A stretch of 64,000 bases of DNA. It comes from Candidatus Sungiibacteriota bacterium (GTDB lineage: Bacteria > Patescibacteriota > Minisyncoccia > Sungbacterales > JACQCQ01). The stretch spans positions 65,991 to 129,990 of the forward strand of contig JACQCQ010000009.1 of the NCBI GenBank assembly GCA_016201505.1. The letters run 5' to 3'. The notes beneath the pieces are model-generated. The model did no database searches, had not been told where the DNA came from, and saw only the letters and a list, made by a program, of their open reading frames with translations. This document shows positions 4,177-62,659 of the stretch, in pieces (the stretch's first letter is position 1; each line of letters starts with the position of its first letter). The translations under genes and the position numbers were made by a program.

Positions 4177-4623
4177 CTACACTTTGTTCGTCTTTCGACT
4201 CCAAACTGTAGGCCAAGCCCTTAATGAGGAAAGACCCCATCCCTGGGGTCCTCTCTGTTTGCCATTTGGCATTGCACCTTTCACTATAGCACCCCGTGCC
4301 CCGCTGTCAACTGCGACTCACGTCGAGTCCGGTTAATATAGAGCTAAACCCATTTCTATTCTCCCCAATGAAACACATCTCTAATTCCTGCCTGCGCTCC
4401 GTCGGCCATAGCCTTTGGCGACGTGCGACCGGCCGGCAGGCGCGCGAATAGTAGAGTATAGACATCTTTGGGGTACTTTTGGAATATCTGCGCAGGAATT
4501 TTGAGCTATTTGAGAAAGCGTTAGGGGCGGCAGATTATTTGCCTTATCTCATCCCCAATGCGTTGAGCTTTCCTATGATAGAATGAATAGTAATCGCGAA
4601 TATACGAATTTACACAAAATATA

Positions 4624-4655
4624 CCAATATACGAATATGCGAATTCGTATATTGG
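4624..4655. promoter_or_regulatory. 32-bp palindrome 10 bp upstream of the pilB start; candidate operator
   Basis: ccaatatacgaat-atgcga-attcgtatattgg has perfect 13-bp arms. Related ATACGAAT motifs lie just upstream. Confidence 0.35.
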
Positions 4656-4665
4656 TGATTGCTCC

Positions 4666-6420
4666 ATGCCTTTAATCCACGACAATCAATTAAAAGCTCT
4701 TCTAAAGGACACAAATGTGGTCTCCGCCGAGCTTTTGACTGCCGCCGAAAAGGAATCAAAGTCGAAAGGTACGCGCCTCCGCGATGTGCTGCTGCATAAC
4801 AGCATGATTAAGGAGGAGGAACTGCATCGGCTGGAGGCTTATATTTTGGGTATCCCTTATGTTGATCTCGAAAAAGAAACGATTGATCCGCAGGTTTTGA
4901 ATATCATCCCCGAGCCGATTGCCAAAAAGAACAACATCGTCGCCTATAAAAAAGCCGGGAAGGATCTGGAGGTCGCCATGCTCGATCCGGAGGATATTCA
5001 GACGATCGAGTTCATTAAAAAGAAAGCCGGGCTGCGGATTTTGCCGCGACTTACGAACGCCGTTTCTATTAAGAATGTGCTTCTGCAGTATCAAAAATCG
5101 CTGGCAGCGGAATTTTCCGAGCTGATTTCAAAAGATACGGCGGAAGCCTTGACGGTCGCGGGAGAGACGGGGAAACCGATTGATGATAAGGATTTGCAGA
5201 AAATGGCCGAAGATCTGCCGATTATTCGGATTGTCGACTCTATTATTCGGCATGCGATTTTAAGCCAAGCCTCGGATATTCACATTGAGCCGGCGGAAAA
5301 AGAAGTTATTGTGCGCTATCGGATTGACGGTATTTTGCATGACGAGATGAAATTGCCGAGAGAAACCGCAGCCGGGGTGGCGGCACGCATTAAAGTTATG
5401 GCGAACTTAAAATTAGATGAGCATCGGCTGCCACAGGACGGACGATTTAAAATCGAAACGTCTGAATATAAGTTTTCATTCCGCGTCTCGGTTCTGCCGG
5501 TTTTTGATGGTGAGAAAATTGTGGTGCGTCTATTGCCAGAAGGCGCGCATAGCCTTTCACTTGAGCAGCTCGGATTTTTTGGCGTGGGGCTGGAACGCAT
5601 CCATAAGGCGATTGTAAAACCCACCGGCATTATCTTGGCAACTGGTCCCACGGGCTCCGGCAAAACAACGACGCTCTACACTATTTTGGATATCTTAAAT
5701 CAGCCGGGCGTTAATATTTCAACCATTGAAGATCCGGTGGAGTACCGCATGCCAAGAGTCAATCAAACGCAGGTGCGCCCCGATATCGGCCTCACCTTTG
5801 CCACAGGACTCCGCTCACTGTTGCGCCAAGATCCGAATATCATTATGGTCGGCGAGATTCGCGACAACGAGACGGCAAATCTTGCGATTAACGCGGCTCT
5901 CACCGGACACCTAGTGCTTTCAACACTCCACACCAATTCCGCCGCCGGCTCGCTGCCGCGGCTGCTTGATATGAAAATTGAGCCGTTTTTAATTGCTTCC
6001 ACCGTAAACGCCATTATTGCCCAACGGCTTGTCAGAACACTGACTGAAGAAAAAGAAATGCGGGTTTTAACCTCGGCCGAAATAAACGCGCTTTCGAAGC
6101 AGGTCGATCTTGAGAAAATTCTCGACAAGCTGAAAGAAGAGAAAATTATCGATAAAAAAACGAATCTCGACTCGCAGAAGTGGGGATTTCCTAAGCCTTC
6201 GGAAAAATCGAAAGACGGCTACAAGGGGCGCATTGGTATTCATGAGGTTTTGGACATGAGTCTTGCGATTAAAGATCTTATTCTAAAAAATTCAACCTCT
6301 GATCAAATCGAAGAAGAGGCCCGAAAAGAAGGCATGCTGACCATGCTCGAAGACGGATTTATTAAAGCCGCGCAGGGAATTACGAGTGTTGAGGAAGTAT
6401 TGAGAGTTACGAGTGAATGA
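4666..6420 (+). CDS. pilB: Type IV pilus assembly ATPase PilB (GspE family)
   Basis: 584 aa. N-terminal GspII_E domain, Walker A ILATGPTGSGKTTTLY, and Asp/His boxes. Confidence 0.95.
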   Translation: MPLIHDNQLKALLKDTNVVSAELLTAAEKESKSKGTRLRDVLLHNSMIKEEELHRLEAYILGIPYVDLEKETIDPQVLNIIPEPIAKKNNIVAYKKAGKDLEVAMLDPEDIQTIEFIKKKAGLRILPRLTNAVSIKNVLLQYQKSLAAEFSELISKDTAEALTVAGETGKPIDDKDLQKMAEDLPIIRIVDSIIRHAILSQASDIHIEPAEKEVIVRYRIDGILHDEMKLPRETAAGVAARIKVMANLKLDEHRLPQDGRFKIETSEYKFSFRVSVLPVFDGEKIVVRLLPEGAHSLSLEQLGFFGVGLERIHKAIVKPTGIILATGPTGSGKTTTLYTILDILNQPGVNISTIEDPVEYRMPRVNQTQVRPDIGLTFATGLRSLLRQDPNIIMVGEIRDNETANLAINAALTGHLVLSTLHTNSAAGSLPRLLDMKIEPFLIASTVNAIIAQRLVRTLTEEKEMRVLTSAEINALSKQVDLEKILDKLKEEKIIDKKTNLDSQKWGFPKPSEKSKDGYKGRIGIHEVLDMSLAIKDLILKNSTSDQIEEEARKEGMLTMLEDGFIKAAQGITSVEEVLRVTSE

Positions 6421-10718: not shown

Positions 10719-11354
10719 ATGACACAAGAAGCATTGACGACAGAGCTGCTTTCCATGCGAAAGCGAGCGGAACGAACGGCGCAGGGCATCGACCAGATCT
10801 CCCACAACCTTTCTGCCGAGCGGCAATCGCTCCGGCAGGTGGTCAAGGAGTACGGCACGAAGCGAGTCGAACTTCTGAAGCAGACGCTTCAAGCGCGCGG
10901 GATGACCTGGTGCACCTACTGCTCCAAAGCAGTTCCCGTGAACGAAGTCGAACTTCTGCTCGTCGAAGGAGTGGAGGAACGCTCTGGCGGCTACGAGAAC
11001 TCCTGCTGGGGCTGTGAACAGTTCTCTAAGTTGCACCGAGCGTGCCCTTATTGCCGCGAGCGAGCACAGGATCGACATGGGACCCAAGGCCGCTACGACA
11101 GCTTCAACAAGCTTCAGGCGTGCTTCTATGCTTTCCATGTGGAGAAGCGTGAGGACGGCCACTACGCTCGCAAGTTCGGCAACTGGGTCAAGCTCGACGA
11201 CGAGAACTGCAACCTCAATGAGCCGTCGAGTCAGCTGATCGAGAAACTTGCGGAAGAATGGAATCTTCCGCCACGAATCGAAGTCGAGTCGAAGTGGCCG
11301 AGTTCGGAAGAGAAACTCATCGTTCACGAGCGGGCACTGGCCGAAGCGAGTTGA
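10719..11354 (+). CDS. Hypothetical Cys-rich protein (CxxC pairs) in a GC-rich segment directly 3' of tRNA-Arg
   Basis: aaaggagag RBS 8 nt upstream of the ATG. Codon composition is visibly more GC-rich than flanking DNA. A terminator follows. Confidence 0.6.
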   Translation: MTQEALTTELLSMRKRAERTAQGIDQISHNLSAERQSLRQVVKEYGTKRVELLKQTLQARGMTWCTYCSKAVPVNEVELLLVEGVEERSGGYENSCWGCEQFSKLHRACPYCRERAQDRHGTQGRYDSFNKLQACFYAFHVEKREDGHYARKFGNWVKLDDENCNLNEPSSQLIEKLAEEWNLPPRIEVESKWPSSEEKLIVHERALAEAS

Positions 11355-29288: not shown

Positions 29289-29795
29289 ATGGCGCAGCGC
29301 ACCAAACAGCAGAGCGAAATCTATCTGCGCAACTTTATTTTCGGCGTTGAAGACAGTCTCGTCTCAACCGTGGGGTTGCTCGCCGGGGTGGCGGAGGCGG
29401 GCAGTTCGCGCGGCGTGATTTTAGTTACGGGTATGGTCTATATAGTCGTCGAGGCCTTTTCGATGGCGGTCGGCAGTTTTTTATCCGAGCATTCGATCGA
29501 GGAGTATGAAGGCGATGCAAAATCGGTTTCGCGTTCGATTATCGGGGCTTCTACTATGTTTCTCTCTTTTGTCATCGCCGGGCTTATTCCGCTGTTTCCC
29601 TATCTCGTGCTTTCACTACAGACTGGATTTTTCCTTTCCATCATCGTCTCGCTTCTGGCGCTGCTTTTGCTCGGCATCCTGAATGCTCAATTTTCAAACA
29701 AATCCTGGATCTATAAATCAATTGAAATGGTCGTCATTGGCGGCGCGGCGATTGCGATTGGCCTAGTTGCGGGTAAACTTTTCCGTATTGCTTAA
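29289..29795 (+). CDS. VIT1/CCC1-family Fe/Mn transporter
   Basis: FIFGVEDSLVSTVGLLAGVAEAG and C-terminal TM bundle. Confidence 0.85.
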   Translation: MAQRTKQQSEIYLRNFIFGVEDSLVSTVGLLAGVAEAGSSRGVILVTGMVYIVVEAFSMAVGSFLSEHSIEEYEGDAKSVSRSIIGASTMFLSFVIAGLIPLFPYLVLSLQTGFFLSIIVSLLALLLLGILNAQFSNKSWIYKSIEMVVIGGAAIAIGLVAGKLFRIA

Positions 29796-29804
29796 ACAAC
29801 GGGT

Positions 29805-30002
29805 ATGGGGAAAATTTTGATCACCTTAATGCTCGCGGTCATCCTGGTTGCGGTCGTCGTCAATTTTGAGTATATTCATCCAAACGCGCTCGGCGATTTA
29901 AGAAATCAAGTTACCCAGTGCCATCTGCAGCAGTGTTTTTTGTTGGGCGGAATTATTTTCTTCCTGGTCTTTATTATTTTGTTTTCGATTATTTTCGATT
30001 AG
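29805..30002 (+). CDS. Small 2-TM membrane protein
   Basis: 65 aa, hydrophobic. Confidence 0.35.
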   Translation: MGKILITLMLAVILVAVVVNFEYIHPNALGDLRNQVTQCHLQQCFLLGGIIFFLVFIILFSIIFD

Positions 30003-30006
30003 TAGT

Positions 30007-30125
30007 CGCGAATATACCTGCCCGCCATCAGCCTGTCGTACGGAGTAGACAATCATTCGAGAGTATAGAGTGCTTCACGAAAAAGATTGCACCTCGCGGC
30101 ACAGGCATCTGGCAGGCGGGCGAAT
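30007..30125. repeat. 119-bp inverted repeat, left copy (partner 31076-31194)
   Basis: Reverse complement matches the partner with 4 mismatches in 119. Confidence 0.85.
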
Positions 30126-30186
30126 GGTCGCAAAATATACGAATACGTGAAGTCATCCGAGGGAAGAGTTTTTTTATGTGAGCCGA

Positions 30187-31050
30187 TTATGGGCTGACTT
30201 CCTGGAATCCCGGAACTTTTAAGACGGTGATAAGGCTCACATTACTTGTTAAGCCATTGTAGGCCGCGGTAATATTTGCCGCTCCCACACTTGATGAAAC
30301 TGCGGTAACCAACCCTTTGCCGGCGCCATTATTTACCGTCGCTGCGGCGGTATTGTCAGAAGACCAATTGGCCGAAGCCGTTACATCCGAAGGCCCCGCG
30401 CCCCCCGGTCCATCGGGGTCATAGGTGGCGGTAAGCTGTACCGTCTGGGTGGGGTTTAAGGATTTACTAATTGGCGAAATAGTCAGCGTTGCCGTGTTGA
30501 TGACGACCGTATCGCCCGTGGTGCCTCCCGGGCCGGTACAAGAGAGCGTGTAGGATTGTGAAGCAGTTATATTGCCGGTCGACTGGCCGGGATTGGATGT
30601 GCCGGTCCAGCCGCCGGGAGAGACGGTGCAACTTGTTGCGTGAGCCGAAGTCCAGGAGAGCGTGGCCGCAGTATTATAGGTGATCACAATCGGCCCATCC
30701 GCGCCGTTCGCCTTAATGTCGGGTGTTGGCAAGGTACAATCCGGTGTGGTTATCGTCTGCGTATCGTCAATCGTATGGCCGCTGCCGGTGATATAGACCC
30801 AGATGCCGTAGTTGGTAAGCGAAAGGGGTACCGCTCCCGGCCCCCAGTCGACCGAGGTGGCTGAACAGGGTATGCCAGACCCGCAGGCGGGAGTAAAGAT
30901 GGCAGCCCCAGTCGCGTCAGTCCAGCGGGAGGGGGAGTATTGGCTGATGGCCGCGGCACTCGAATGTCCGTTTGAAAAAAATAAAACACCGCCCGCAGCT
31001 ATCAGGCCGAAGGCGAGTATCGAGATTGCGGCGACTTTAGTGCGCGACAT
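30187..31050 (-). CDS. Secreted surface protein with a C-terminal bacterial Ig-like (Big_2-like) domain
   Basis: Signal/TM MSRTKVAAISILAFGLIAAGGVLFF. Thr/Ser/Gly-rich. The ORF-track N-terminal extension to 31113 is translation of the inverted repeat. Confidence 0.7.
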   Translation of the reverse strand: MSRTKVAAISILAFGLIAAGGVLFFSNGHSSAAAISQYSPSRWTDATGAAIFTPACGSGIPCSATSVDWGPGAVPLSLTNYGIWVYITGSGHTIDDTQTITTPDCTLPTPDIKANGADGPIVITYNTAATLSWTSAHATSCTVSPGGWTGTSNPGQSTGNITASQSYTLSCTGPGGTTGDTVVINTATLTISPISKSLNPTQTVQLTATYDPDGPGGAGPSDVTASANWSSDNTAAATVNNGAGKGLVTAVSSSVGAANITAAYNGLTSNVSLITVLKVPGFQEVSP

Positions 31051-31075
31051 ATCTTCTTCGTCTATTTGGGGAGGA

Positions 31076-31194
31076 TTTGCCCGCCCGCCAGATGCCCGTG
31101 CCGCGAGGTGCAATCTTTTTCGTGAAGCACTCTATACTCTCGAATGATTGTCTACTGCGTACGACAGGCTGATGGCGGGCAGGTATATTCGCGA
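31076..31194. repeat. 119-bp inverted repeat, right copy
   Basis: See 30007-30125. Confidence 0.85.
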
Positions 31195-31198
31195 TTAC

Positions 31199-31958
31199 TT
31201 ACTCAACGGGCGGCACTTCGTGGAAATTATTTACCGGCTGGTTTACCTGAACATGCGCCGAGCCCGAGCCGTTGTTTCCGGTTACGGTGCAGTCTTGGGA
31301 AACTGTCGGGGCCAACGTCACCTGACCGTTTATAGATCCGTTGCCGAGGTCTCCCGTACAGCTGTAGATTCCCTGGCCGCATGCGGGGCATGAAAGGACC
31401 GTTGTCTGGCCTCTTGTAATGGTTGGGGGGGTAAACGAGACCGGGGCATTCCCGGGCGGCGTGCCTGGCGGTGGTGTCCCGGGCGGCGGCGGGGGGGGCG
31501 TCCCCGCGCTGCAATCCGGTGTGGTTATCGTCTGCGTATCGTCAATCGTATGGCCGCTGCCGGTGATATAGACCCAGATGCCGTAGTTGGTAAGCGAAAG
31601 GGGTACCGCTCCCGGCCCCCAGTCGACCGAGGTGGCTGAACAGGGTATGCCAGCTGTAGGAGTCACACGTGGCAGCTGACGTATCAGTCCAGTTGATGGT
31701 GATGATGGGTTGGCCATTTGAGCATGAAGTGGTGAGGGCGGAAGACCCGCAGGCGGGAGTAAAGATGGCAGCCCCAGTCGCGTCAGTCCAGCGGGAGGGG
31801 GATTTAAGGGCGCTTGCAGTTGAATGGTTGGAAAACGCCAAAACTCCGCCAGCGACAGAAAAGGCGGCAGCTATGATGAGCAGTGAAATTAATCGAGAGC
31901 GCGGCATTGATTCCATTATACCCGGTAATGAAACTTCGACAATAAAAAATGCCCACAT
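31199..31958 (-). pseudogene. Tandem paralogue of 30187-31050, mosaic and frameshifted
   Basis: Two blocks of roughly 150 and 60 bp are identical to the downstream gene (…IPCSATSVDWGPGAVPLSLTNYGIWVYITGSGHTIDDTQTITTPDC…). A 91-bp insertion breaks the frame and is unique to this copy. N- and C-termini are unique (PPPPPPGTPPPGTPPG). Confidence 0.55.
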
Positions 31959-32107
31959 GGCAGAGATTTATCCCTATCCACCTTTTTTGTTCTGTATTGA
32001 ATTGCATAGGAGGCAATGCGCGGTGCAGCAGTCGAAGTTCTACTAACCGGGTTATAGGCCGCTTATCTCTAATTTACTTTTCTTTTATCCACACAAGATT
32101 ATTCATC

Positions 32108-32147
32108 CCGCACCAAAAAGTTCCCGTGCGGGAACTTTTTGGTGCGG
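32108..32147. terminator. 40-bp palindrome / bidirectional terminator
   Basis: ccgcaccaaaaagttcccg-tg-cgggaactttttggtgcgg. Confidence 0.6.
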
Positions 32148-32348
32148 CTATTTCATCGCAAGCAGATCTCGTAAATCTTTTACGTCACTCTCCAAGCGCT
32201 CAATGCGGCGTTTATGGTCAGCCAGGATTAGTTTCTCAATGCGATCAAACCGTTTATGAACATCTTCAAATTGCCGATCAATATCATTAAAACCACGCTG
32301 GACCATGCTCGCGAGCCCTTCTATCGTCACTTTCTTTTTGGTAGCCAT
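32148..32348 (-). CDS. Small coiled-coil protein (homologue of 60259-60531)
   Basis: MATKKKVTIEGLASMVQRGFNDIDR...RLESDVKDLRDLL compared with MAKKKRTKPMSLENVARMTQAGFLGVGRRIDT...LERDVEDLKSRL. Confidence 0.45.
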   Translation of the reverse strand: MATKKKVTIEGLASMVQRGFNDIDRQFEDVHKRFDRIEKLILADHKRRIERLESDVKDLRDLLAMK

Positions 32349-32394
32349 GTTTAGTATGTTAAAGGTATCAAGTCTAACGAATCTGTCAAAATTC

Positions 32395-33177
32395 TCACCT
32401 GAATGCTTCACTCCTCCGCAAATTTTCTTTGATAGCCGCTTTAAATTGATCGAGCCCCTGGGCCGCATCATCTTTTTGATTCCCCGGGTAGGCTTTATAC
32501 CAATCTTGGAGCGAAAGGTGATGGGCTAAATTCAGTGCTGATTCAAATGAATTTTGGGCGTCTTTTTCGCCTAAGTTTAACTCTGCCACCCCGAGCGCGT
32601 TCCAAAGCCAGGGATTGGTATCGGCGTTTGGAATCTTTCGCATCGCGAGCCGTATGGTTTCTTTGGCTTCTTTAAACTTCCCGTCTTTGGAATAGACCCA
32701 GGCCAAATCATTGTATCCCGCCCATTCAGACGGTGCCCACTCAGTAAATCTTCTAAAATTGTCTTCAGCTTTCACTAAGTCGCCCTGTGTCCCGTAAATT
32801 AATCCCCGCACGTAGAGTGTGCGTAAATTTCCGGGATTGGCTCCGAGCTCTTTCGCAGTTTCACTAATCGCCTGATCGAATTTTCCCTCAATAAAATAAA
32901 TCCGCGCCAATTGATAGTGCCCCCAAAAAATACGGGGATCAATTGTCACTGCTTTCCGGTAGGCTTTCTCGGCAATGTCTAAGTTGTATGCACCGCCGTT
33001 GAAATAATACGCCCCAATGCCCGAGGCCAACTTCGCGTCCGTTTGGTCGAGTGTAACGGCAACCTCTCCCCAGCGATGTCCCCACAGAACCCGCGCCAGA
33101 GCCGTAGCTTGCCAATATAAAATCAGCGCACTAAAAAATAAAAAAGCAATGATGTATTGCCCTGTGTTTCTATACAT
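32395..33177 (-). CDS. Membrane-anchored TPR-repeat protein
   Basis: N-terminal TM then TPR motifs (AEKAYRKAVTIDPRIFWGHYQLARIYFIEGKFDQA...). Confidence 0.8.
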   Translation of the reverse strand: MYRNTGQYIIAFLFFSALILYWQATALARVLWGHRWGEVAVTLDQTDAKLASGIGAYYFNGGAYNLDIAEKAYRKAVTIDPRIFWGHYQLARIYFIEGKFDQAISETAKELGANPGNLRTLYVRGLIYGTQGDLVKAEDNFRRFTEWAPSEWAGYNDLAWVYSKDGKFKEAKETIRLAMRKIPNADTNPWLWNALGVAELNLGEKDAQNSFESALNLAHHLSLQDWYKAYPGNQKDDAAQGLDQFKAAIKENLRRSEAFR

Positions 33178-33213
33178 AAGTATCTTTGCGTTGAAGAACA
33201 CAGTAATAGGGGA

Positions 33214-33555
33214 TTACAGTCTGTCTCTCAACATCATAGGAAAACAGTAGCGCTGAATAATCAGCGAACAGTAGCAAAAATTAAGACCCCCATAACATTT
33301 CGGACACTCCCAATGTTCGGCGTACGCATAGGGTTTCGGGTCCTTTTTCAGAACATCAACAACCATATCGCCTATGTGACATTTTACAACACCGGTTCGA
33401 TGGGCAATGTCCAGTTCCTTCTTTCGGAAAAGCGGAATTTTGCCGAAATAGTGGCCCCCTCGATATCTGCCGCCCTTATACTGTGTGAGCCAGATATCCC
33501 TCGTACATATTGAGCATTTCTTTATAGATCGTTTCTTGATTTCTTTATATGCCAT
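33214..33555 (-). CDS. Hypothetical Cys-rich protein (zinc-ribbon-like)
   Basis: CSICTRD...CPKCYGG. Its fragment is duplicated at 34838-35035. Confidence 0.45.
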   Translation of the reverse strand: MAYKEIKKRSIKKCSICTRDIWLTQYKGGRYRGGHYFGKIPLFRKKELDIAHRTGVVKCHIGDMVVDVLKKDPKPYAYAEHWECPKCYGGLNFCYCSLIIQRYCFPMMLRDRL

Positions 33556-33634
33556 AAATTAAGATAACGCGTTGCAATTTCGACTAGAGCGTGCCACTTT
33601 AATCTGGGTGCTTCCAAAACGAAGAATGTTAAAT

Positions 33635-33862
33635 TCACAAATAATTCGAAAACTGTTCGGGAGTAAACTCTATTTCGCGTAAAATCTGACGCAATAATCC
33701 GCGGCCTATGTCCTCGCCTCCGTGTTTCGGCACAAGCGTCGTTCTCCCGTCCGGATGCTGAAAGAAAATGTGTGAACCGCTCTGACGCACTTTCGTAAAG
33801 CCGATGGAATATAAAACGCGCATGAGATCGCGCGCCTTCAGCATCCGCACCTTTTTGCTCAT
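33635..33862 (-). CDS. hicA: HicA mRNA-interferase toxin
   Basis: LMRVLYSIGFTKVRQSGSHIFFQHPDGRTTLVPKHGGEDIGRGLLRQIL. Confidence 0.85.
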   Translation of the reverse strand: MSKKVRMLKARDLMRVLYSIGFTKVRQSGSHIFFQHPDGRTTLVPKHGGEDIGRGLLRQILREIEFTPEQFSNYL

Positions 33863-33869
33863 GATCTAT

Positions 33870-34124
33870 CTATATGGTAACCACCTCCATTCCCACGAAC
33901 GCCGGTTCATACGCGAACCATTTAATTCTCTTCCGGTACAACGGATTTATTCTTGTGACCTCGAGTGAGAGACGAATCGCGTCGCGGACTCGTTCTCGGA
34001 GCTCATTCATTGTTTTTGCCTGGGTTGAACATCCCGGCAATGCAGGAACCGACGCAACAAAATAGCCGTCTTCGTCGTGCTCGACTACAACTTTAAATTG
34101 ATTTTGCGAGAATCTCTTATTCAT
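33870..34124 (-). CDS. hicB: HicB antitoxin
   Basis: VVVEHDEDGYFVASVPALPGCSTQAKTMNELRERVRDAI. Confidence 0.85.
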   Translation of the reverse strand: MNKRFSQNQFKVVVEHDEDGYFVASVPALPGCSTQAKTMNELRERVRDAIRLSLEVTRINPLYRKRIKWFAYEPAFVGMEVVTI

Positions 34125-34357: not shown

Positions 34358-34645
34358 TCAACCCAAATAAATCCGTGCCAGCTGATAATGCCCCCACAAA
34401 ATCTTCGGATCAATCGCCACCGCTTTTTTGTAGCCTTTTTCTGCGAGATTTAAATCATACGCCCCGCCGTTGAAGTAATAGCCGCCAATTTGAGAGGCAA
34501 GTTTAGCGTCTTTTCTATCAAGCATTATGGCAATTTGTCCCCACCGATGATGCTCCCAGGCTATTTCAGCGAGTGTAGTGCCTACAGAATACAAAATCAA
34601 CGCACAAAAAAACAAAACAGCAACAATAGCGTGCCAAGATTTCAT
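34358..34645 (-). pseudogene. Truncated paralogue (N-terminal 95 aa) of the TPR gene 32395-33177
   Basis: MKSWHAIVAVLFFCALILYSVGTTLAEIAWEHHRWGQIAIMLDRKDAKLASQIGGYYFNGGAYDLNLAEKGYKKAV aligns residue by residue. Confidence 0.5.
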
Positions 34646-34746
34646 CCCGTTAGAGAATTAACGAGTAACTTTATGGCAAGTTTAATGTCTCTATGTGTCG
34701 TGAGCCTCATTTTGAAATACAGCCCCGATTAATTCTCTAACGGGAT
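34644..34746. repeat. MITE-like element with ATCCCGTTAGAGAATTA TIRs (perfect 17-bp)
   Basis: atcccgttagagaatta ... taattctctaacgggat. The start codon of the truncated TPR paralogue lies in the TIR. Confidence 0.6.
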
Positions 34747-34837
34747 TCATCCATTCACGATCGCGTCTGCCTGCTCGCCTCGCTGGAGCTTTGGCGAAGC
34801 GGGCTGGCAGAGCTTCTAATTGGTATTCATAAAAAAA

Positions 34838-35035
34838 TTAAGATCCCCAATAACAAACGGGGTATTCCCAATACTCGACGTACGCATAGGGTTTCGGATC
34901 CTTTTCCAGAACGTCAATAATCATAGTGTCTAGGCGGCGTTTGATCGCGCCGGCACGATGGACAATGTCCAATTCCTTCTTTCGGAAAAGCGGAATCTTG
35001 CCGAAATAGTGACCCCACGGTATCTGCCATCGCAA
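34838..35035 (-). pseudogene. Fragment paralogous to 33214-33555
   Basis: HYFGKIPLFRKKELDIVHRAGAIKRRLDTMIIDVLEKDPKPYAY compared with the full copy. Confidence 0.4.
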
Positions 35036-35134
35036 TACTTACTGTATGAGCTGGATATCCCCCGTGCATATTGAGCATTTCTTAACAGATCGCTTCTTGA
35101 TTTCTCTTCTCACCATAAAGAAGATGATACTGAC

Positions 35135-35395
35135 TCAAGAATACAAGTTACTATGCTTATCGATAATGGTAAACTCAACAGTAGTCTCATCGAGAGTTTT
35201 ATAGAAAGCACGGAAATCGCCAGTGACATTGATACTGCGGAAATCCCGCCACTCACCATGGAGAGCATGATTGTTGAGTGTCGGGTTAAAGGGATCAGCC
35301 ATAAATAGCCGAAGCCTTTTCTTGAATTTGTTTCTTACCGATACCGGAAGTTTTTGATAGTTTTTATCAAAATTCTTATGAAAGAGAACTTTCAT
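35135..35395 (-). CDS. RelE/YafQ-type toxin
   Basis: FDKNYQKLPVSVRNKFKKRLRLFMADPFNP...GDFRAFYK. Confidence 0.8.
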   Translation of the reverse strand: MKVLFHKNFDKNYQKLPVSVRNKFKKRLRLFMADPFNPTLNNHALHGEWRDFRSINVTGDFRAFYKTLDETTVEFTIIDKHSNLYS

Positions 35396-35667
35396 AGTCG
35401 ATCAAGGTACTGAAGTGCTTCTTTATGGGTGAACGGCCCACGAGCATTCTTCCTGCCCCTGATGTCTTTTATAATTTGCATAAGCAGTTTCTGGGTGCGT
35501 CTGTTCGGTACCGGAGGCGCTGAAAAAATAACCCGCTTTTCCCGTATGAATTCCTTAAGATAGGCGTTAATAATGGTTCCCAACGGAAGTCCAAGCTCCC
35601 GTGCCGCCAGCTGCGCTTCTTCCTTAAGCTTTTTGTCGGTTTTTATATTCAGCAGTATTTTTTCCAT
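35392..35667 (-). CDS. RelB/DinJ-type antitoxin
   Basis: LLNIKTDKKLKEEAQLAARELGLPLGTIINAYLKEFI. Overlaps the toxin by 4 nt. Confidence 0.8.
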   Translation of the reverse strand: MEKILLNIKTDKKLKEEAQLAARELGLPLGTIINAYLKEFIREKRVIFSAPPVPNRRTQKLLMQIIKDIRGRKNARGPFTHKEALQYLDRL

Positions 35668-35816: not shown

Positions 35817-36104
35817 TTAGGCATAGGTGTCCTCTCTCCTGAGTCCGCAGTAGTGGAAACTCACTCCACGGTCTTTAATATCATAGCGAAAACGAAGACG
35901 TCCCAAAGACAGCCTCCACCGTCCTTCGCCCTGGGGGATATCGATAAGTTTTTTGATCGCGTAATGATGTGTTTGGTTATACGGATCAGTCTCAAGGATG
36001 CCGATTGCACGAACGTAGATGCCTTTTACCTCCGGGTTACGCTTTATAAGCGCACGAAGCAGGCGCTCAAAATGAGGGGTAGCGGAAACTAAAAAAGACG
36101 GCAT
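35817..36104 (-). CDS. RelE/ParE-family toxin
   Basis: RWRLSLGRLRFRYDIKDRGVSFHYCGLRR. Confidence 0.8.
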   Translation of the reverse strand: MPSFLVSATPHFERLLRALIKRNPEVKGIYVRAIGILETDPYNQTHHYAIKKLIDIPQGEGRWRLSLGRLRFRYDIKDRGVSFHYCGLRREDTYA

Positions 36105-36110
36105 GGGTCC

Positions 36111-36392
36111 TTACCGTTTGATCTTTCTTTCTAGAGAAGGAGAAAGCTCTGCCAAAATTGCCCGAGCCGGACGAGCTTTGCCCGCCAGATATTCTTTTCG
36201 GCTCACTTCAATGTGAGCTTTCACTTTGGGATCTCGTAGCTCGAGATAATCCTCAAACTCGTCAATATCCATAACACCGGCAACAGGGATACCATCCTTT
36301 TCTAAAATTATATATTCCTTGTTTAGATGTACCCGCTTGATAATAGCTCCAAGATTAATCCGGGCTTTTGTAAGTGGGAGACGCTGCACCAT
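36111..36392 (-). CDS. Phd/YefM-family antitoxin
   Basis: LPLTKARINLGAIIKRVHLNKEYIILEKDGIPVAGVMDIDEFEDYLEL. Confidence 0.8.
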   Translation of the reverse strand: MVQRLPLTKARINLGAIIKRVHLNKEYIILEKDGIPVAGVMDIDEFEDYLELRDPKVKAHIEVSRKEYLAGKARPARAILAELSPSLERKIKR

Positions 36393-38458: not shown

Positions 38459-39463
38459 CTAACTAAAGACAGTGTACATTTTTAATATGCCCGCACCTAC
38501 TCTCATTAAGAGAGAGTCGGGAACGAGATGGAGCGTATTCTCTACGTCATTTTTGGTTGATCGCGTTGGCTTAGCGACGAAATCGTGAATTCCGTTTGAA
38601 CAAAGTTTGAATGCCACGAGACAGCCGCCATGTATCCTGGTCGTTTTGTAGTAATAATCGGAGGGATTTAATATCTCGGCGAGTTTCGGGTCATACAGTA
38701 ACGCGCCCAAGCTGTAAAAAATTAATCCATCCCTATACCTTTCAATTAGCTGCATTCCGTGCGGCTGATGTCCGACGACAATATTCGCTCCATAATCAAT
38801 TGCTAGTCGGTAATACATTTTTTGATGTTCGTCAGGGAAGAAAGAAAATCCCGCATAAACGTTTCCGACTGTGTGCAGCGCGACAATGACAATGTCAGAC
38901 GATACTCTCGCTCGTTTTATCGCACCGGAGAGGTGCTCCTTTGTTAACGACGCTACGCCGCTTTTTCCTTGTGCTGGATGCATATTCTCGTCCAGCAGGT
39001 CGGTCTGTGCTAAAAAAGACACCCGAAGATTTTGAAGGTTAACTACCTTCGGCATGAAAGCCTCATAGTTATCTTCTCCTATTCAGATGAAGTCAATTTT
39101 TTCGGTTTTTAACAAATTAAGGCATTCCTCGAGTGCAGTTCTGCCATAGTCAAAACTATGGTTATTCGCAAAAGATAAAATATAACGGCGATCCCCCCTG
39201 AACAAACTAAAAATCGCTGGGTCAGATCGAAAAAGAAACTCCTGGTTCCCGTTTCTTCTTGGCTGGCCGCCACGGGAAATGACGCCCTCGTAATTAAGAA
39301 ATATTACGTCACTTTTTTCTATGGTGTCTCGAAACTTTCCCCATATAGAATTGTGATCAATCTTGGACACCCCCCTACTAGTTTCCGTATTAAAAATCAA
39401 ATCACCGCCGACTAGAACGGTTCCTTGATATTGACATGCCGTATGTTGAAATATCTGCATCAT
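38459..39463 (-). pseudogene. CapA/PGA_cap-family metallophosphatase homologue interrupted by one in-frame TGA
   Basis: LVGGDLIF...SFANNHSFDYG...KIDFI-TGA-IGEDNYEAFMPKV...VIVALHTVGNVY...IVVGHQPHGMQ. The two ORFs 39083-39463 and 38459-39055 are in the same frame. The stop is at 39083-39085. Confidence 0.6.
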
Positions 39464-41447: not shown

Positions 41448-43016
41448 CTATGGAAAAGGGTGCGGAAAAGTGTTGAATTTTCTCTTAATCTGATAGCCCA
41501 GTTTTGGCAGGACTGTTCTAAGTCTCGAGGCTCCCAAGGGTGCAAAAGTTTCGTTAAGGTATAATGGGACTAATTCAGGCACCACAACCTGAGTTACATT
41601 ATAACCCAATTCATGGTTTAAGAAATAATCGCGAACCTCAAATCCGTAAACTTCGTAGCCTATTCCCAACGACTCGACCCTTTTGACCAAGAAGTTTAAT
41701 TCATCACGAGTTGTCGCAAAGCTTCTTGGAAAATCAAAGCGGACTTTTTGAATATCCTGGGCATGTCCTTCAAGGAAAAAAGCAATGTGTTCGCGCATCT
41801 TTGGGTTAGCCCAAAGATGCAAACGTTCTTCTTGACCTAATGAAGGGTCACCAAACGGCCTATAATTATCAGCTAACTCATATACGGGATGACTGTCTTT
41901 CTTAGATCGGAGACTATAATAAACTCCCCAAGCTTCTTCATATGCCTTTGTCGCCGCGATTTCTGGATTTGCGTGACAGCCACCCCCCATTGATAAGTAG
42001 GGCCCCACCCAGGATTCATCTAGAATGATCGCAACAAAACTGGGCGGGCCTATGTCGAGTGTTGTGTTTAATATGTGACACTTGAATCTGCATCTTTGCA
42101 CTTGGAGTATTGAACTCCTCAAATCTTTGTTGAGAGACGAAATATCAATTTGTGGCGGAGAGATTCTATTAAGCCAGAAAATGAGAAAGGCATCTCTTTC
42201 AATAAGTTCATATAAACCCGCCAGCATTGCCCCCTCTCGATTAAACATCCCCCCGCTACCATTTGTATTTGGCTCTCTAAGAAATACTTCTGGTATGTCC
42301 CCGCTGATGTAGTTCCAAAAGATTAGCTGTGCGGGCAGCATGGTTTTTTGTCCTGTAGACACTCGAACACCTTGAACCCAGTGAAGTCTATGCTCTGGGG
42401 TCCAAGCAAAACGATTTGATTGATTTTGCTGTTCCTCCGAGAAACTCACCAACTTCTTAGGATCTAAAGCCCGGGCTCTTCTGTTCAAATCTACATAAGA
42501 ATTCGTCACAAAATTTTTTCTACTGTACTTAGTCAAATAATATCGCTCCAAAAATTCCCCGATACTTTTACTAACCATACTAATTAAGTCTTGACCGGAG
42601 CTATGTCCGAATGTACGAACAATTTTTCTCCCATCAGTATTATATGTATCATCAATGGATGGAGTTATATCAATCCGACTGAATGCTGGAGAGTCGTTAA
42701 AACGGCGGTGGTCTATGAATACGTCTTTGACAAGTCCACGCTCCTTTAATTTTCTAATAATTTTTATAAACGGACGTAGGGATTCCTCATATTTATTGAG
42801 GATTGCATAGGAAGTCCTTTCAGAAATTTTATCAAGGTCTTTATACAACCTTGATAATATCCTCTTCTCGAAAGAATTGCTCTCCAGATCGTAGAAACTT
42901 GCTGTCAAAGAATTCTGTCCCGGCCCCCCTGCATCGAAATATTCGGACATTAATACAAGCCCATCATAATCAAGCGGCTGGTAGAGACTGAAGTCTTGTT
43001 CTTTTGGTGTGCTCAC
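41448..43016 (-). CDS. YcaO-domain protein (ATP-dependent cyclodehydratase/amide-activating family)
   Basis: TNGSGGMFNREGAMLAGLYELIERDAFLIFWLNRISPPQID is the signature YcaO ATP-binding region. 522 aa with an approximately 170-aa N-terminal extension. Confidence 0.85.
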   Translation of the reverse strand: MSTPKEQDFSLYQPLDYDGLVLMSEYFDAGGPGQNSLTASFYDLESNSFEKRILSRLYKDLDKISERTSYAILNKYEESLRPFIKIIRKLKERGLVKDVFIDHRRFNDSPAFSRIDITPSIDDTYNTDGRKIVRTFGHSSGQDLISMVSKSIGEFLERYYLTKYSRKNFVTNSYVDLNRRARALDPKKLVSFSEEQQNQSNRFAWTPEHRLHWVQGVRVSTGQKTMLPAQLIFWNYISGDIPEVFLREPNTNGSGGMFNREGAMLAGLYELIERDAFLIFWLNRISPPQIDISSLNKDLRSSILQVQRCRFKCHILNTTLDIGPPSFVAIILDESWVGPYLSMGGGCHANPEIAATKAYEEAWGVYYSLRSKKDSHPVYELADNYRPFGDPSLGQEERLHLWANPKMREHIAFFLEGHAQDIQKVRFDFPRSFATTRDELNFLVKRVESLGIGYEVYGFEVRDYFLNHELGYNVTQVVVPELVPLYLNETFAPLGASRLRTVLPKLGYQIKRKFNTFPHPFP

Positions 43017-61074: not shown

Positions 61075-61149
61075 GGGCGTTTAGCTCAGTGGTAGAGCGT
61101 CTCGTTTACACCGAGAAGGTCCAAGGTTCAATCCCTTGAACGCCCACCA
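61075..61149 (+). tRNA. tRNA-Val (TAC), CCA encoded
   Basis: GGGCGTT acceptor. D arm GCTC-AGTGGTA-GAGC. Anticodon arm TCTCG-TTTACAC-CGAGA. T arm CAAGG-TTCAATC-CCTTG. Ends A-CCA. Confidence 0.85.
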
Positions 61150-62659
61150 TAAGGAGATTAAGAGGAATTTTATTTTCCAAACAATGGGCTTCCGCAATGG
61201 AAGCCCATTGTTTTTGTGGAACGCCACGCGCTTCGCGCGCGTGGAGTGTCAGGTTCAATCCGAAGATTTTTAGAGCCGTAACCTTTTTATGACTTAACAA
61301 GGGGGAAGAAACGATTTCGTCTATATTTTGCGCGTCTTTTATCCACTCCCGCAGAGGTTCTATCCAAACCGAGACCCCCTTTGCGACTTGGGCTATTTTC
61401 TCCTCCAACGACTTCTTGCGGGAGAGAAGGTTTGCCTTCTCGGAGCGGTAGATTTCCCGCTCAATATCTTGGTCAAGGTATGCGGTAAGAAGGCGTTGGA
61501 GTTTTTGAGAAATGGCCTGTATCTCGGTTCTCGTCTCTTGTATGGTGGCGGCCGTAGATTGGCTGGCCTCCTGTTCGTCCTTGTCGGCCATTTTAGATAG
61601 CTCTGCCGCCCATTCAGAAGGCAAGGCATAGTTTTTGATAAGCGCGGACAACTGCCGGTCAAGCTCCTCCTCGCGGATACAAGGTTCGGAGCATTTCATC
61701 GCTTTGGATTTCTTGGAACAGCGATAATAAGTGTAGTGATGAACATTGCCGTTCTGCTGATATTTCGTCTTCTGCTCGGCAGTTACCATCATCCCGCAAG
61801 TAGCGCACCGGAGCAGTCCGCAGAGGGCTTGAGGATTGTTAGCCTTTCTCTCCGGCTTGCCCCGTAACCGCAAGACTTCCTGAACGCGGTCAAAAAGTTG
61901 CTTCGTGATAACGGTTTCATGCTTGCCCTCATACATTTCTCCGCCGTAGCGAAAGAGGCCGCAATACAGAGGATTAGTTAAGATTCTCACAATGCGGGTG
62001 GAGTGGAGGCGGTTGCCTTCTTTAGACCTTACGCCGTGCTTTAGGAAAAGCTTGGATATATCCTCCAGCCGCGATTGTCCGTGCGAGTATAACTCAAAGG
62101 CCTCTTTCACAATTTTCGCCTTCTTGCGATCAACGACAATCTGTTTGATACGTACATCGTTTATATAGCCGATGGGCGCGATATTCGGATACTCGCCGCG
62201 CTTCACTTTCTCGTAGAGGCCGCGCTTGGTGTTCGTGCTTAAATCAAGAATATATTGATTGGCCATTCCGAACTCCACACTCATCATCAAAACATTGTCG
62301 TTGGGGCGATAGCTTCTGTCGTGTGTTTGGATGTGTTGAATTATGTCGCGCTGTAACATCCAGCTTATTTGTCCGCCGTCCACCGGATTGCGAGCAAGAC
62401 GATCTAATTTCCAACAAACAATGCCCTGCGCTTCGCCTTTCTCTACTCGTTCCATCATCTCGTTGAAGATCGGGCGGCCGGGCATTTTTGCCGACTGCTT
62501 TTCAATAAATTCTTCGGAGACGTTCAACTCTTCCGTTTTCGCTAACGCGCGCAAGACCGCAAGTTGGTCATCAATAGACCGGACTTGCTTGTCCTCAACA
62601 TCGGTAGATTTGCGGGCGTATAGAAAATATTTTGTCATTGTAGTATAGTACTTATACAT
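61106..62659 (-). CDS. Large serine recombinase (integrase)
   Basis: N-terminal resolvase domain (YARKSTDVEDKQVRSIDDQ), recombinase domain, zinc ribbon (CGLLRCATCG...YYRCSKK...C), coiled-coil. The ORF reads through the terminator hairpin and the tRNA-Val 3' end, so the true C-terminus is uncertain. Confidence 0.85.
   Translation of the reverse strand: MYKYYTTMTKYFLYARKSTDVEDKQVRSIDDQLAVLRALAKTEELNVSEEFIEKQSAKMPGRPIFNEMMERVEKGEAQGIVCWKLDRLARNPVDGGQISWMLQRDIIQHIQTHDRSYRPNDNVLMMSVEFGMANQYILDLSTNTKRGLYEKVKRGEYPNIAPIGYINDVRIKQIVVDRKKAKIVKEAFELYSHGQSRLEDISKLFLKHGVRSKEGNRLHSTRIVRILTNPLYCGLFRYGGEMYEGKHETVITKQLFDRVQEVLRLRGKPERKANNPQALCGLLRCATCGMMVTAEQKTKYQQNGNVHHYTYYRCSKKSKAMKCSEPCIREEELDRQLSALIKNYALPSEWAAELSKMADKDEQEASQSTAATIQETRTEIQAISQKLQRLLTAYLDQDIEREIYRSEKANLLSRKKSLEEKIAQVAKGVSVWIEPLREWIKDAQNIDEIVSSPLLSHKKVTALKIFGLNLTLHAREARGVPQKQWASIAEAHCLENKIPLNLLMVGVQGIEPWTFSV
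61177..61216 (+). terminator. Strong rho-independent terminator
   Basis: ccaaacaatgggcttcc-gcaa-tggaagcccattgttttt. Confidence 0.75.

Follow-up and report, generated by a model that had tools for sequence, protein, structure and literature searches.

We analysed a stretch of 64,000 nucleotides (nt) from Candidatus Sungiibacteriota bacterium (contig JACQCQ010000009.1, positions 65,991 to 129,990; hereafter the window), taken from a metagenome-assembled genome (MAG) of the Candidate Phyla Radiation (CPR), and in particular a locus at which two surface-protein genes, here called gene A and gene B, stand in tandem and gene A is enclosed by two long inverted repeats. An initial annotation, made from the sequence only, had proposed that DNA inversion and/or gene conversion at this place produces phase or antigenic variation. 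With moderate confidence, we read the locus as the scar of a lineage-specific duplication, gene conversion and rearrangement at a synteny breakpoint, which would also be a substrate for recombination, and not as a dedicated switch; nothing in our computational analysis shows a programmed DNA-inversion switch. On this conservative reading, the locus documents the duplication, gene conversion and decay of a surface-protein gene in an uncultivated CPR bacterium whose surface-protein family is linked to pili. The features which carry this reading are the following.

30187-31050, minus strand: gene A (287 amino acids, aa; NCBI MBI3627621.1), derived chimeric paralogue
31199-31907, minus strand: gene B, orthologue of the surface-protein gene that adjoins a TPR gene in relatives; frameshift at 31653/31654 in the MAG assembly
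30737-30878 (gene A) and 31512-31653 (gene B), minus strand: 142-nt block, 100% identity
30877-30936 (gene A) and 31743-31802 (gene B), minus strand: 60-nt block, 100% identity
31652-31742, minus strand: 91-nt segment in gene B, absent from gene A; ancestral coding sequence (…SALTTSCSNGQPIITINWTDTSAATCDSYS)
30001-30154, plus strand: left inverted-repeat arm, apparent leader copy reading toward the 3' end of gene A; core 30006-30125
31046-31199, minus strand: right inverted-repeat arm, apparent leader copy; core 31075-31194

Genes A and B share an identical core

The protein encoded by gene A is identical to MBI3627621.1, which is labelled 'Ig-like domain-containing protein [Candidatus Sungbacteria bacterium]'. 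It consists of a hydrophobic N-terminal signal or anchor segment, an N-terminal domain that lacks 48 aa, an Ig-like repeat, a Big_2 domain (Pfam, E = 1.4e-5) and the C-terminal residues PGFQEVSP. Gene B, directly upstream, is split in the MAG into two open reading frames (ORFs), 31542-31958 and 31199-31717. A Pfam scan found no N_methyl motif in either protein, and the two are not pilins. Searches of the window with A and B by tblastn and blastn returned no further copies.

The two identical blocks are contiguous in gene A and lie 91 nt apart in gene B. The existence of an upstream paralogue sharing two perfectly identical blocks with gene A, as the initial annotation had described it, was therefore confirmed, with measured block lengths of 142 and 60 nt. 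Over this core, 202 of 202 positions agree, whereas outside it the 5' coding parts of A and B are 58% identical and their 3' parts are unrelated. Recombination or gene conversion between the paralogues had also been put forward, and we found what is expected of it, namely a tract of identity with sharp edges, where 58% identity on the 5' side jumps to complete identity and then gives way to the absence of homology on the 3' side. This pattern is the signature of a recent gene conversion between A and B, or of a recombinational origin of gene A itself.

Gene B is the conserved gene and gene A an extra copy

Upstream of gene B lies a gene that could be used to find the same place in other genomes:

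32395-33201, minus strand: TPR gene, conserved upstream neighbour and synteny anchor

With this anchor we obtained seven related loci, one from a JGI metagenome (L002) and six from GTDB MAGs (L003-L008), in which the TPR proteins share 47-55% identity with that of the window. In L002-L007, the TPR gene is directly followed by one secreted FN3/Ig-like surface-protein gene. In three of these loci (L003, L004 and L005) pilB and pilC come directly after the surface-protein gene, and in L002 the pilus cluster begins one gene later. Since gene B adjoins the TPR gene, as in the relatives, it is the conserved orthologue and gene A a derived extra copy. The earlier view of gene B as a mosaic paralogue of gene A has thus to be turned around: B is the syntenic orthologue, with a predicted promoter of its own, and A is the derived copy.

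The window holds a type IV pilus cluster with pilB (4666-6420), pilC and pilM. However, pilB (on the plus strand, from 4666) and the TPR-B-A group (on the minus strand) are 26 kb apart here and on opposite strands; the surface-protein gene and pilB, neighbours in the ancestral order, have been parted in this genome, and the locus is a synteny breakpoint. A remnant of a surface-protein pseudogene upstream of pilB was not found by tblastn.

The comparison with the orthologues also bears on the 91 nt that separate the two blocks in gene B. They encode a stretch of the form 'PAC-SS…TC-N..P..T..W', which is present in all six orthologues. Because it is conserved in the orthologues and missing from A, the 91-nt segment is ancestral and was lost from gene A. 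Indeed, gene A is devoid of a full 144 nt (48 codons) of the N-terminal domain, in frame, the A-type junction joining GCGGGT to CTGGCATACC.

A comparable situation exists in L005 (JAUSGI010000004.1, 8806-12960), where two tandem surface-protein genes (579 and 778 aa) stand directly upstream of pilB. Their C-terminal parts of about 190 aa are nearly identical, with 300 nt at 94% identity and perfect stretches of 37 nt. The family recurrently makes tandem paralogues with homogenised blocks, and the two cases show that these pilus-linked proteins evolve fast by domain shuffling and tandem duplication.

A separate observation concerns the ends of these proteins. The C-termini of A (30187-30213), of B (31199-31231) and of the orthologues of L002-L005 all carry P-x-[FW]-x-E-[FIV], with 0-4 residues between it and the end (PGFQEVSP*, NFHEVPPVE*, PEWKEIIPR* and P[DEL]FEEF*, where the asterisk is the stop codon). 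This ending matches nothing in Pfam or NCBIfam; in CPR surface proteins it may serve as a C-terminal signal for sorting or anchoring that has so far escaped recognition.

Gene B is intact in an independent assembly

We compared the locus with Logan contigs (k = 31) of the runs SRR12113409 and SRR12113410. These contigs break at the repeats and cannot phase the orientation of the enclosed segment; they are 100% identical to the window and cover the outer left junction, the TPR-B side and the pilB leader. One of them (L001) ends 30 nt (k-1) into the left arm, another (L077) ends 30 nt into the B copy of the 60-nt block, and a third (L076) stops at the final base that the two copies of the 142-nt block have in common. 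Three predicted repeat boundaries thus coincide with contig ends, which indicates that the repeats are present in the reads and are not an artefact of the MAG assembly.

Contig L076, from SRR12113410, shows 0 mismatches with the window over 2788 nt. Its sole difference is the presence of 53 extra nt (CGTTGAC…CCATCA) at 31653/31654, where the 91-nt segment borders on the 142-nt block. The 91 and 53 nt together make 144 nt, or 48 codons, and the frame of gene B is open in L076 (…CDSYSVDTRDITRGGPWISHSITGIPCSATSVDW…), so that the N-terminal domain is complete and as long as that of the orthologues. The 53-nt segment is found nowhere else in the window. The frameshift of gene B is a 53-nt deletion relative to this independent assembly of the same population. 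According to the initial annotation, an insertion of 91 bp breaks the frame; the segment and the split ORFs are indeed there, but the segment is ancestral coding sequence and the frame is lost by the deletion next to it. It had further asked whether these 91 bp are polymorphic, and this idea is supported by the 144 nt with an open frame that L076 has in the same population.

Two long inverted repeats enclose gene A

A repeat search of the window returned two arms of 154 nt, 90% complementary and spaced by 891 nt. That the Big-like gene is bracketed by inverted repeats with 4 mismatches had already been noted and is borne out, the core being measured at 120 nt and 97% identity, with mismatches at left-arm positions 30043, 30103, 30114 and 30122 (types G/C, A/G, A/G and G/A). 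In the inner 29-nt tails of the arms (left: 30126-30154), only 19 of 29 positions match (66%). An exact 53-nt piece of the arm is present twice in the window and in 0 of 100 shuffled sequences.

Both arms begin 3-4 nt past the stop codon of a co-oriented ORF, which is an ORF of 65 aa (29805-30002) for the left arm and gene B for the right one. The right arm fills the whole space from the stop codon of gene B to the start codon of gene A, and both arms are untranslated and directly flank the coding region of gene A. They look like an untranslated leader of about 150 nt that is present twice, one copy having been duplicated in inverted orientation behind gene A. We considered and rejected the idea that part of a third paralogue survives beyond the left arm, as the 15-codon ORF found there has no similarity to A or B.

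The sequence around the arms contains no target-site duplication. No third full copy of the arm was detected, neither by scanning the window nor with a covariance model of the arm (R1) run over the whole window with filters off, which returned the two arms and a weak match of 16.7 bits to a palindrome of the pilB leader. An exact 26-mer of the arm had 0 matches in genome, metagenome and viral contig collections. In Rfam, neither the window nor the locus gave a match at the gathering score: the window yielded tRNAs and chance hits only, and positions 29500-32500 chance-level hits only (E above 3). The absence of the repeats from related genomes had been named in advance as an outcome that would speak against inversion; an inverted repeat of at least 35 nt is indeed missing from all seven related loci, which belong to distant relatives (47-55% aa identity).

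The arms resemble the leader of pilB

Two further features link the arms to the pilus cluster or set them apart from it:

4588-4605, plus strand: third copy of the 18-nt arm-start motif TAGTAATCGCGAATATAC, found by sequence comparison and confirmed in Logan contig L078
30017-30120, plus strand: imperfect hairpin of about 104 nt in the left arm, found by comparing its folding with that of shuffled sequences; twin at 31080-31183, minus strand

The first 18-21 nt of the arms (TAGTARTCGCGAATATAC) recur before pilB, and the 18-nt motif occurs exactly 3 times in the window, versus 0.04 expected. The copy at 4588-4605 lies 4 nt past a -10-like sequence, TGATAGAAT, and 60 nt before the ATG of pilB (4666); in the pilB leaders of L004 and L005, this -10-like sequence corresponds to TGATAAAAT. 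The Smith-Waterman score between arm and pilB leader is 32-34, compared with a mean of 17.2 (standard deviation 2.3, maximum 27) for shuffled sequences. In addition, a motif of the left-arm tail, AATATACGAAT (copy at 30134-30144), recurs 4-5 times in the pilB leader, where 4-5 copies of AATATACSAAT follow the 18-nt motif (4599-4656).

The hairpin has a minimum free energy of -51.5 kcal/mol (z = -3.5) with 38 base pairs, and each arm folds on its own. It is quasi-palindromic, so that its reverse complement also fits the covariance model, and it is absent from the pilB leader. The arms therefore look, from these comparisons, like copies of a transcribed leader of the pilus-operon type into which a long hairpin was inserted. 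This likeness agrees with the ancestral order, in which the surface-protein gene and pilB are neighbours. As a way back to the ancestral synteny, one inversion through a crossover within the 18-nt motif is disfavoured, for it would part pilB from its conserved -10 sequence.

Some other features of the pilB leader were noted in passing. Directly before the start codon lies a palindrome, CCAATATACGAAT…ATTCGTATATTGG; the palindrome, which is among the AATATACSAAT copies, or the repeats as a whole may act as an operator or form a hairpin in RNA. Positions 4387-4465, which precede the pilB promoter, contain a GC-rich hairpin (CCTGCC…GGCAGG) followed by CGCGAATAGTAGAGTATAGAC. This hairpin and that of the arms have short motifs in common (GGCAGGCG-GCGAAT and GAGTATAGA), which are not colinear, and 55 near-matching 14-mers, versus 6.5 in shuffled sequences. 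The base of the arm hairpin also resembles a small GC hairpin in the pilB leader of L005 (z = 5.1), a post hoc finding that we did not use as evidence.

Gene B, but not gene A, has a recognisable promoter

31915-31942, minus strand: sigma-70-like promoter of gene B, TTGTCG-16 nt-TATAAT (10/12 matches), 7 nt before the ATG at 31907

Since the predicted promoter ends 7 nt before the ATG, the gene B mRNA would be nearly leaderless. By the same promoter scan, no sigma-70-like promoter facing gene A was found in the arm or in the bracketed segment; the promoter-like matches in the arms point outward only and are at chance level. The scan therefore did not bear out the proposal that the right repeat covers the promoter of gene A. 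We found no terminator between B and A. Read on the strand of gene A, a small hairpin in the left arm runs into TTTTT (30103-30079), an arrangement that is terminator-like.

A rearrangement scar as the preferred explanation

We propose that gene B is the original surface-protein gene, which would have kept its own strong and nearly leaderless promoter. Gene A would have been added as a chimera that joins a diverged signal-peptide region, the 202-nt core identical to gene B and an unrelated 3' half with the Ig-like repeat and the Big_2 domain. One copy of the leader would occupy the gap between B and A, and the other would have been duplicated in inverted orientation behind A. Gene A could be transcribed by read-through from the promoter of gene B, or from an unrecognised promoter in the leader, and the left arm, read on the strand of gene A, would supply the hairpin and the T-run that end its transcript. 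With inverted repeats of 120 nt and direct repeats of 60 and 142 nt, the locus is probably prone to RecA-dependent inversion, deletion and conversion. We favour such a passive scar because the relatives have no inverted repeats, no invertase is encoded nearby, only two gene copies exist in the window and the neighbourhood is plastic (see below).

Several points weigh against this explanation. A passive scar does not predict that the cores of the arms are 97% identical while their tails have fallen to 66%, which hints at ongoing homogenisation or at selection on the core. The start of each arm 3-4 nt past a stop codon and the long hairpin in each (z = -3.5) could reflect a function. As gene A has no identified promoter, an inversion would not be neutral if its expression depended on the promoter of gene B. 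L076 crosses the 60-nt block unbroken, unlike L077, which may be due to low coverage or to real heterogeneity. Finally, the closest relatives reach at most 55% aa identity, and the order of the events and the age of the repeats are not reconstructable. The contrast between core and tails, the hairpin, the placement from stop to start codon and the lack of a recognisable promoter for A keep a functional reading alive.

Possible inversion between the arms

One functional reading is recombinational phase or antigenic variation, in which RecA-dependent or site-specific recombination between the arms would flip gene A relative to the promoter of gene B. If gene A depends on this promoter, flipping would silence it; the flipped gene would be off and antisense RNA would be made. 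An inversion of A would turn the 60-nt and 142-nt blocks into inverted repeats, and a crossover between these would exchange the 3' halves of the two genes, in the manner of a two-cassette shufflon. We regard this as unlikely, although several results speak for it. Long inverted repeats of 97% identity exactly bracket one surface-protein gene, and orientation could matter, as the promoter of gene B is strong, none faces gene A in the arm and no terminator separates B from A. The perfectly identical blocks show that the paralogues exchange sequence, the locus differs between two assemblies of one population, and the gene family has a link to type IV pili, with which CPR bacteria contact their hosts.

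However, Pfam scans of 49 window ORFs, among them every ORF of 120 aa or more from 20 to 43 kb, detected no invertase or tyrosine recombinase within about 30 kb of the locus; the only recombinase that they found in the 64 kb is a large serine recombinase beside tRNA-Val (61106-62659), 30 kb away. The window contains two gene copies only and no silent cassettes, and the left arm has no gene attached to it. Moreover, the 53-nt deletion is not repairable from gene A, which does not agree with a reversible switch, and the seven related loci do not have the inverted repeats. Nor did a second orientation show up in the k = 31 contigs, which are unable to reveal one.

In Campylobacter fetus, the sap locus undergoes RecA-dependent inversion between the conserved 5' regions of surface-layer protein gene homologues. 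Our locus is like sap in having surface-protein paralogues, inverted copies of a 5' region longer than 100 nt and no need for a dedicated invertase, and in principle it could invert in a similar way. But sap has one promoter between opposed complete cassettes and many homologues, whereas here the genes follow each other in tandem, no gene stands behind the left repeat and there are two copies only. Invertons such as fimS/FimBE, Hin/hix and the Mpi-controlled promoters of Bacteroides also have inverted repeats that flank a segment with or near a surface-structure gene; their repeats, of about 9-50 bp, surround a promoter and a site-specific recombinase is nearby, whereas those of our locus, of 120-154 nt, surround a complete coding sequence, with no invertase nearby and no promoter-like site facing gene A. 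As in silent-cassette variation of the pilin type (pilE/pilS in Neisseria, vlsE in Borrelia), our locus shows exchange of segments between copies, and its gene family is linked to type IV pilus genes, but the window contains no array of promoterless cassettes, gene B has its own promoter, the copies are only two and the proteins are not pilins. The closest behaviour is ordinary ectopic gene conversion between tandem surface-protein paralogues, the inverted leader copy being the sole extra feature.

A possible role of the arms in RNA

The arms could also act at the RNA level, a possibility that we consider distinctly improbable. In a read-through transcript from B to A, the leader before A and its complement behind A would form a duplex of about 120 bp enclosing gene A, with RNase III processing, stabilisation or translational control as the outcome; alternatively, the left arm could give rise to an antisense RNA across A. 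In agreement with this, the arms are untranslated and flank the coding region of A from stop to start codon, and each folds better than shuffled controls. Moreover, the start motif of the arms coincides with the expected start of the pilB transcript, 4-7 nt past the -10-like TGATAGAAT. The sequence differences between the two arms point both ways: the one at 30103 keeps the hairpin paired (G-U versus A-U), but the one at 30114 breaks a stem pair in the left copy. With two near-identical copies only, covariation is not assessable, and neither an Rfam family match nor a related element elsewhere was found.

Possible assembly error

The initial annotation had named assembly error as the alternative to variation. 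In this case, the MAG would be mis-joined across the repeats and/or the frameshift of gene B would be an error, a reading to which we give as little weight as to the RNA-level one, and which is more likely for the frameshift alone. An assembly that otherwise agrees without a mismatch has the 53 nt that restore the frame, these nt abut the exact 142-nt repeat, a context in which assemblers are error-prone, and another gene of the window is interrupted as well, by an in-frame TGA. On the other hand, Logan contigs from two runs place graph branch points at three of the repeat boundaries, exact to the base, and also confirm at 100% identity the TPR-B side, the leader of pilB and the outer junction on the left. 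The alternative has thus lost ground for the repeats, which the ends of the Logan contigs support, and keeps some for the frameshift, which differs between the assemblies.

Behind the 53-nt difference stands either a loss-of-function variant that segregates in the population or an error in the MAG. We lean to a real variant, since the ends of the 53-nt segment have no word in common that could make a spurious shortcut in a de Bruijn graph; the deleted junction most likely exists in real reads. In either case, a frameshift that differs between two assemblies of the same population calls for caution.

A speculative two-step variation system and other candidates

A long shot, to which we attach still less credence, combines both kinds of repeats into a two-step variation system for a pilus-associated host-contact protein, in which RecA would flip gene A relative to the promoter of gene B, and recombination between the identical blocks, by then inverted repeats, would trade the 3' domain sets between A and B. 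The variants with 53-nt and 144-nt deletions would in that case be the footprint of turnover within one population. A literature search returned no report of phase variation or inverted-repeat switching in CPR bacteria. If the repeats do drive inversion or exchange, this would be, as far as we found, the first system of surface variation by recombination to be described from the Candidate Phyla Radiation, and it would bear on host or phage recognition by CPR episymbionts.

Other candidates were rejected: a shufflon or cassette inversion system (R64 shufflon, Gin/Cin/Min, Mycoplasma vsa), given two directly oriented paralogues only, no adjacent recombinase and no further copies in 64 kb; a diversity-generating retroelement, given no reverse transcriptase domain in the scanned ORFs, blocks that are 100% identical and arm mismatches of the types G/C, A/G, A/G and G/A; and integron attC sites, given no core sites and no integrase. 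A miniature inverted-repeat transposable element or foldback transposon seems improbable, as the arms have no target-site duplication, the 64 kb contain only two copies and the public collections yielded no match.

Neighbourhood of the locus

We observed a segmental duplication of about 0.7 kb (32894-33558 versus 34365-35119, 71-83% identity), which left truncated second copies of the TPR gene (34358-34645) and of a Cys-rich ORF of 113 aa (33214-33555, copied to 34838-35035). Toxin-antitoxin pairs are interleaved with it, HicA/HicB at 33635-34124 and small pairs at 35135-35667 and 35817-36392. The duplication and these modules indicate that the region around the locus is plastic. The window also holds housekeeping genes and, in all, several toxin-antitoxin pairs.

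The serine recombinase mentioned above has 517 aa, with Resolvase, Recombinase and Zn_ribbon_recom domains and weak XisF/Ccr-like NCBIfam hits. It abuts and overlaps tRNA-Val (61075-62659) and may mark the edge of an integrated element. Among the related loci, L003 contains at 10920-11129 a perfect direct repeat of 55 nt around a run of N, which looks like a scaffolding-gap artefact in the public MAG. The interrupted gene referred to above is a PGA_cap (capsule synthesis) gene at 38459-39463 on the minus strand, with a single in-frame TGA at 39083-39085 and both halves in the same frame; decay to a pseudogene, an error of sequencing or recoding of the stop might each account for it. A YcaO cyclodehydratase gene at 41448-43016, also on the minus strand, may be part of a cluster for a ribosomally synthesised and post-translationally modified peptide (RiPP) or for thioamidation.

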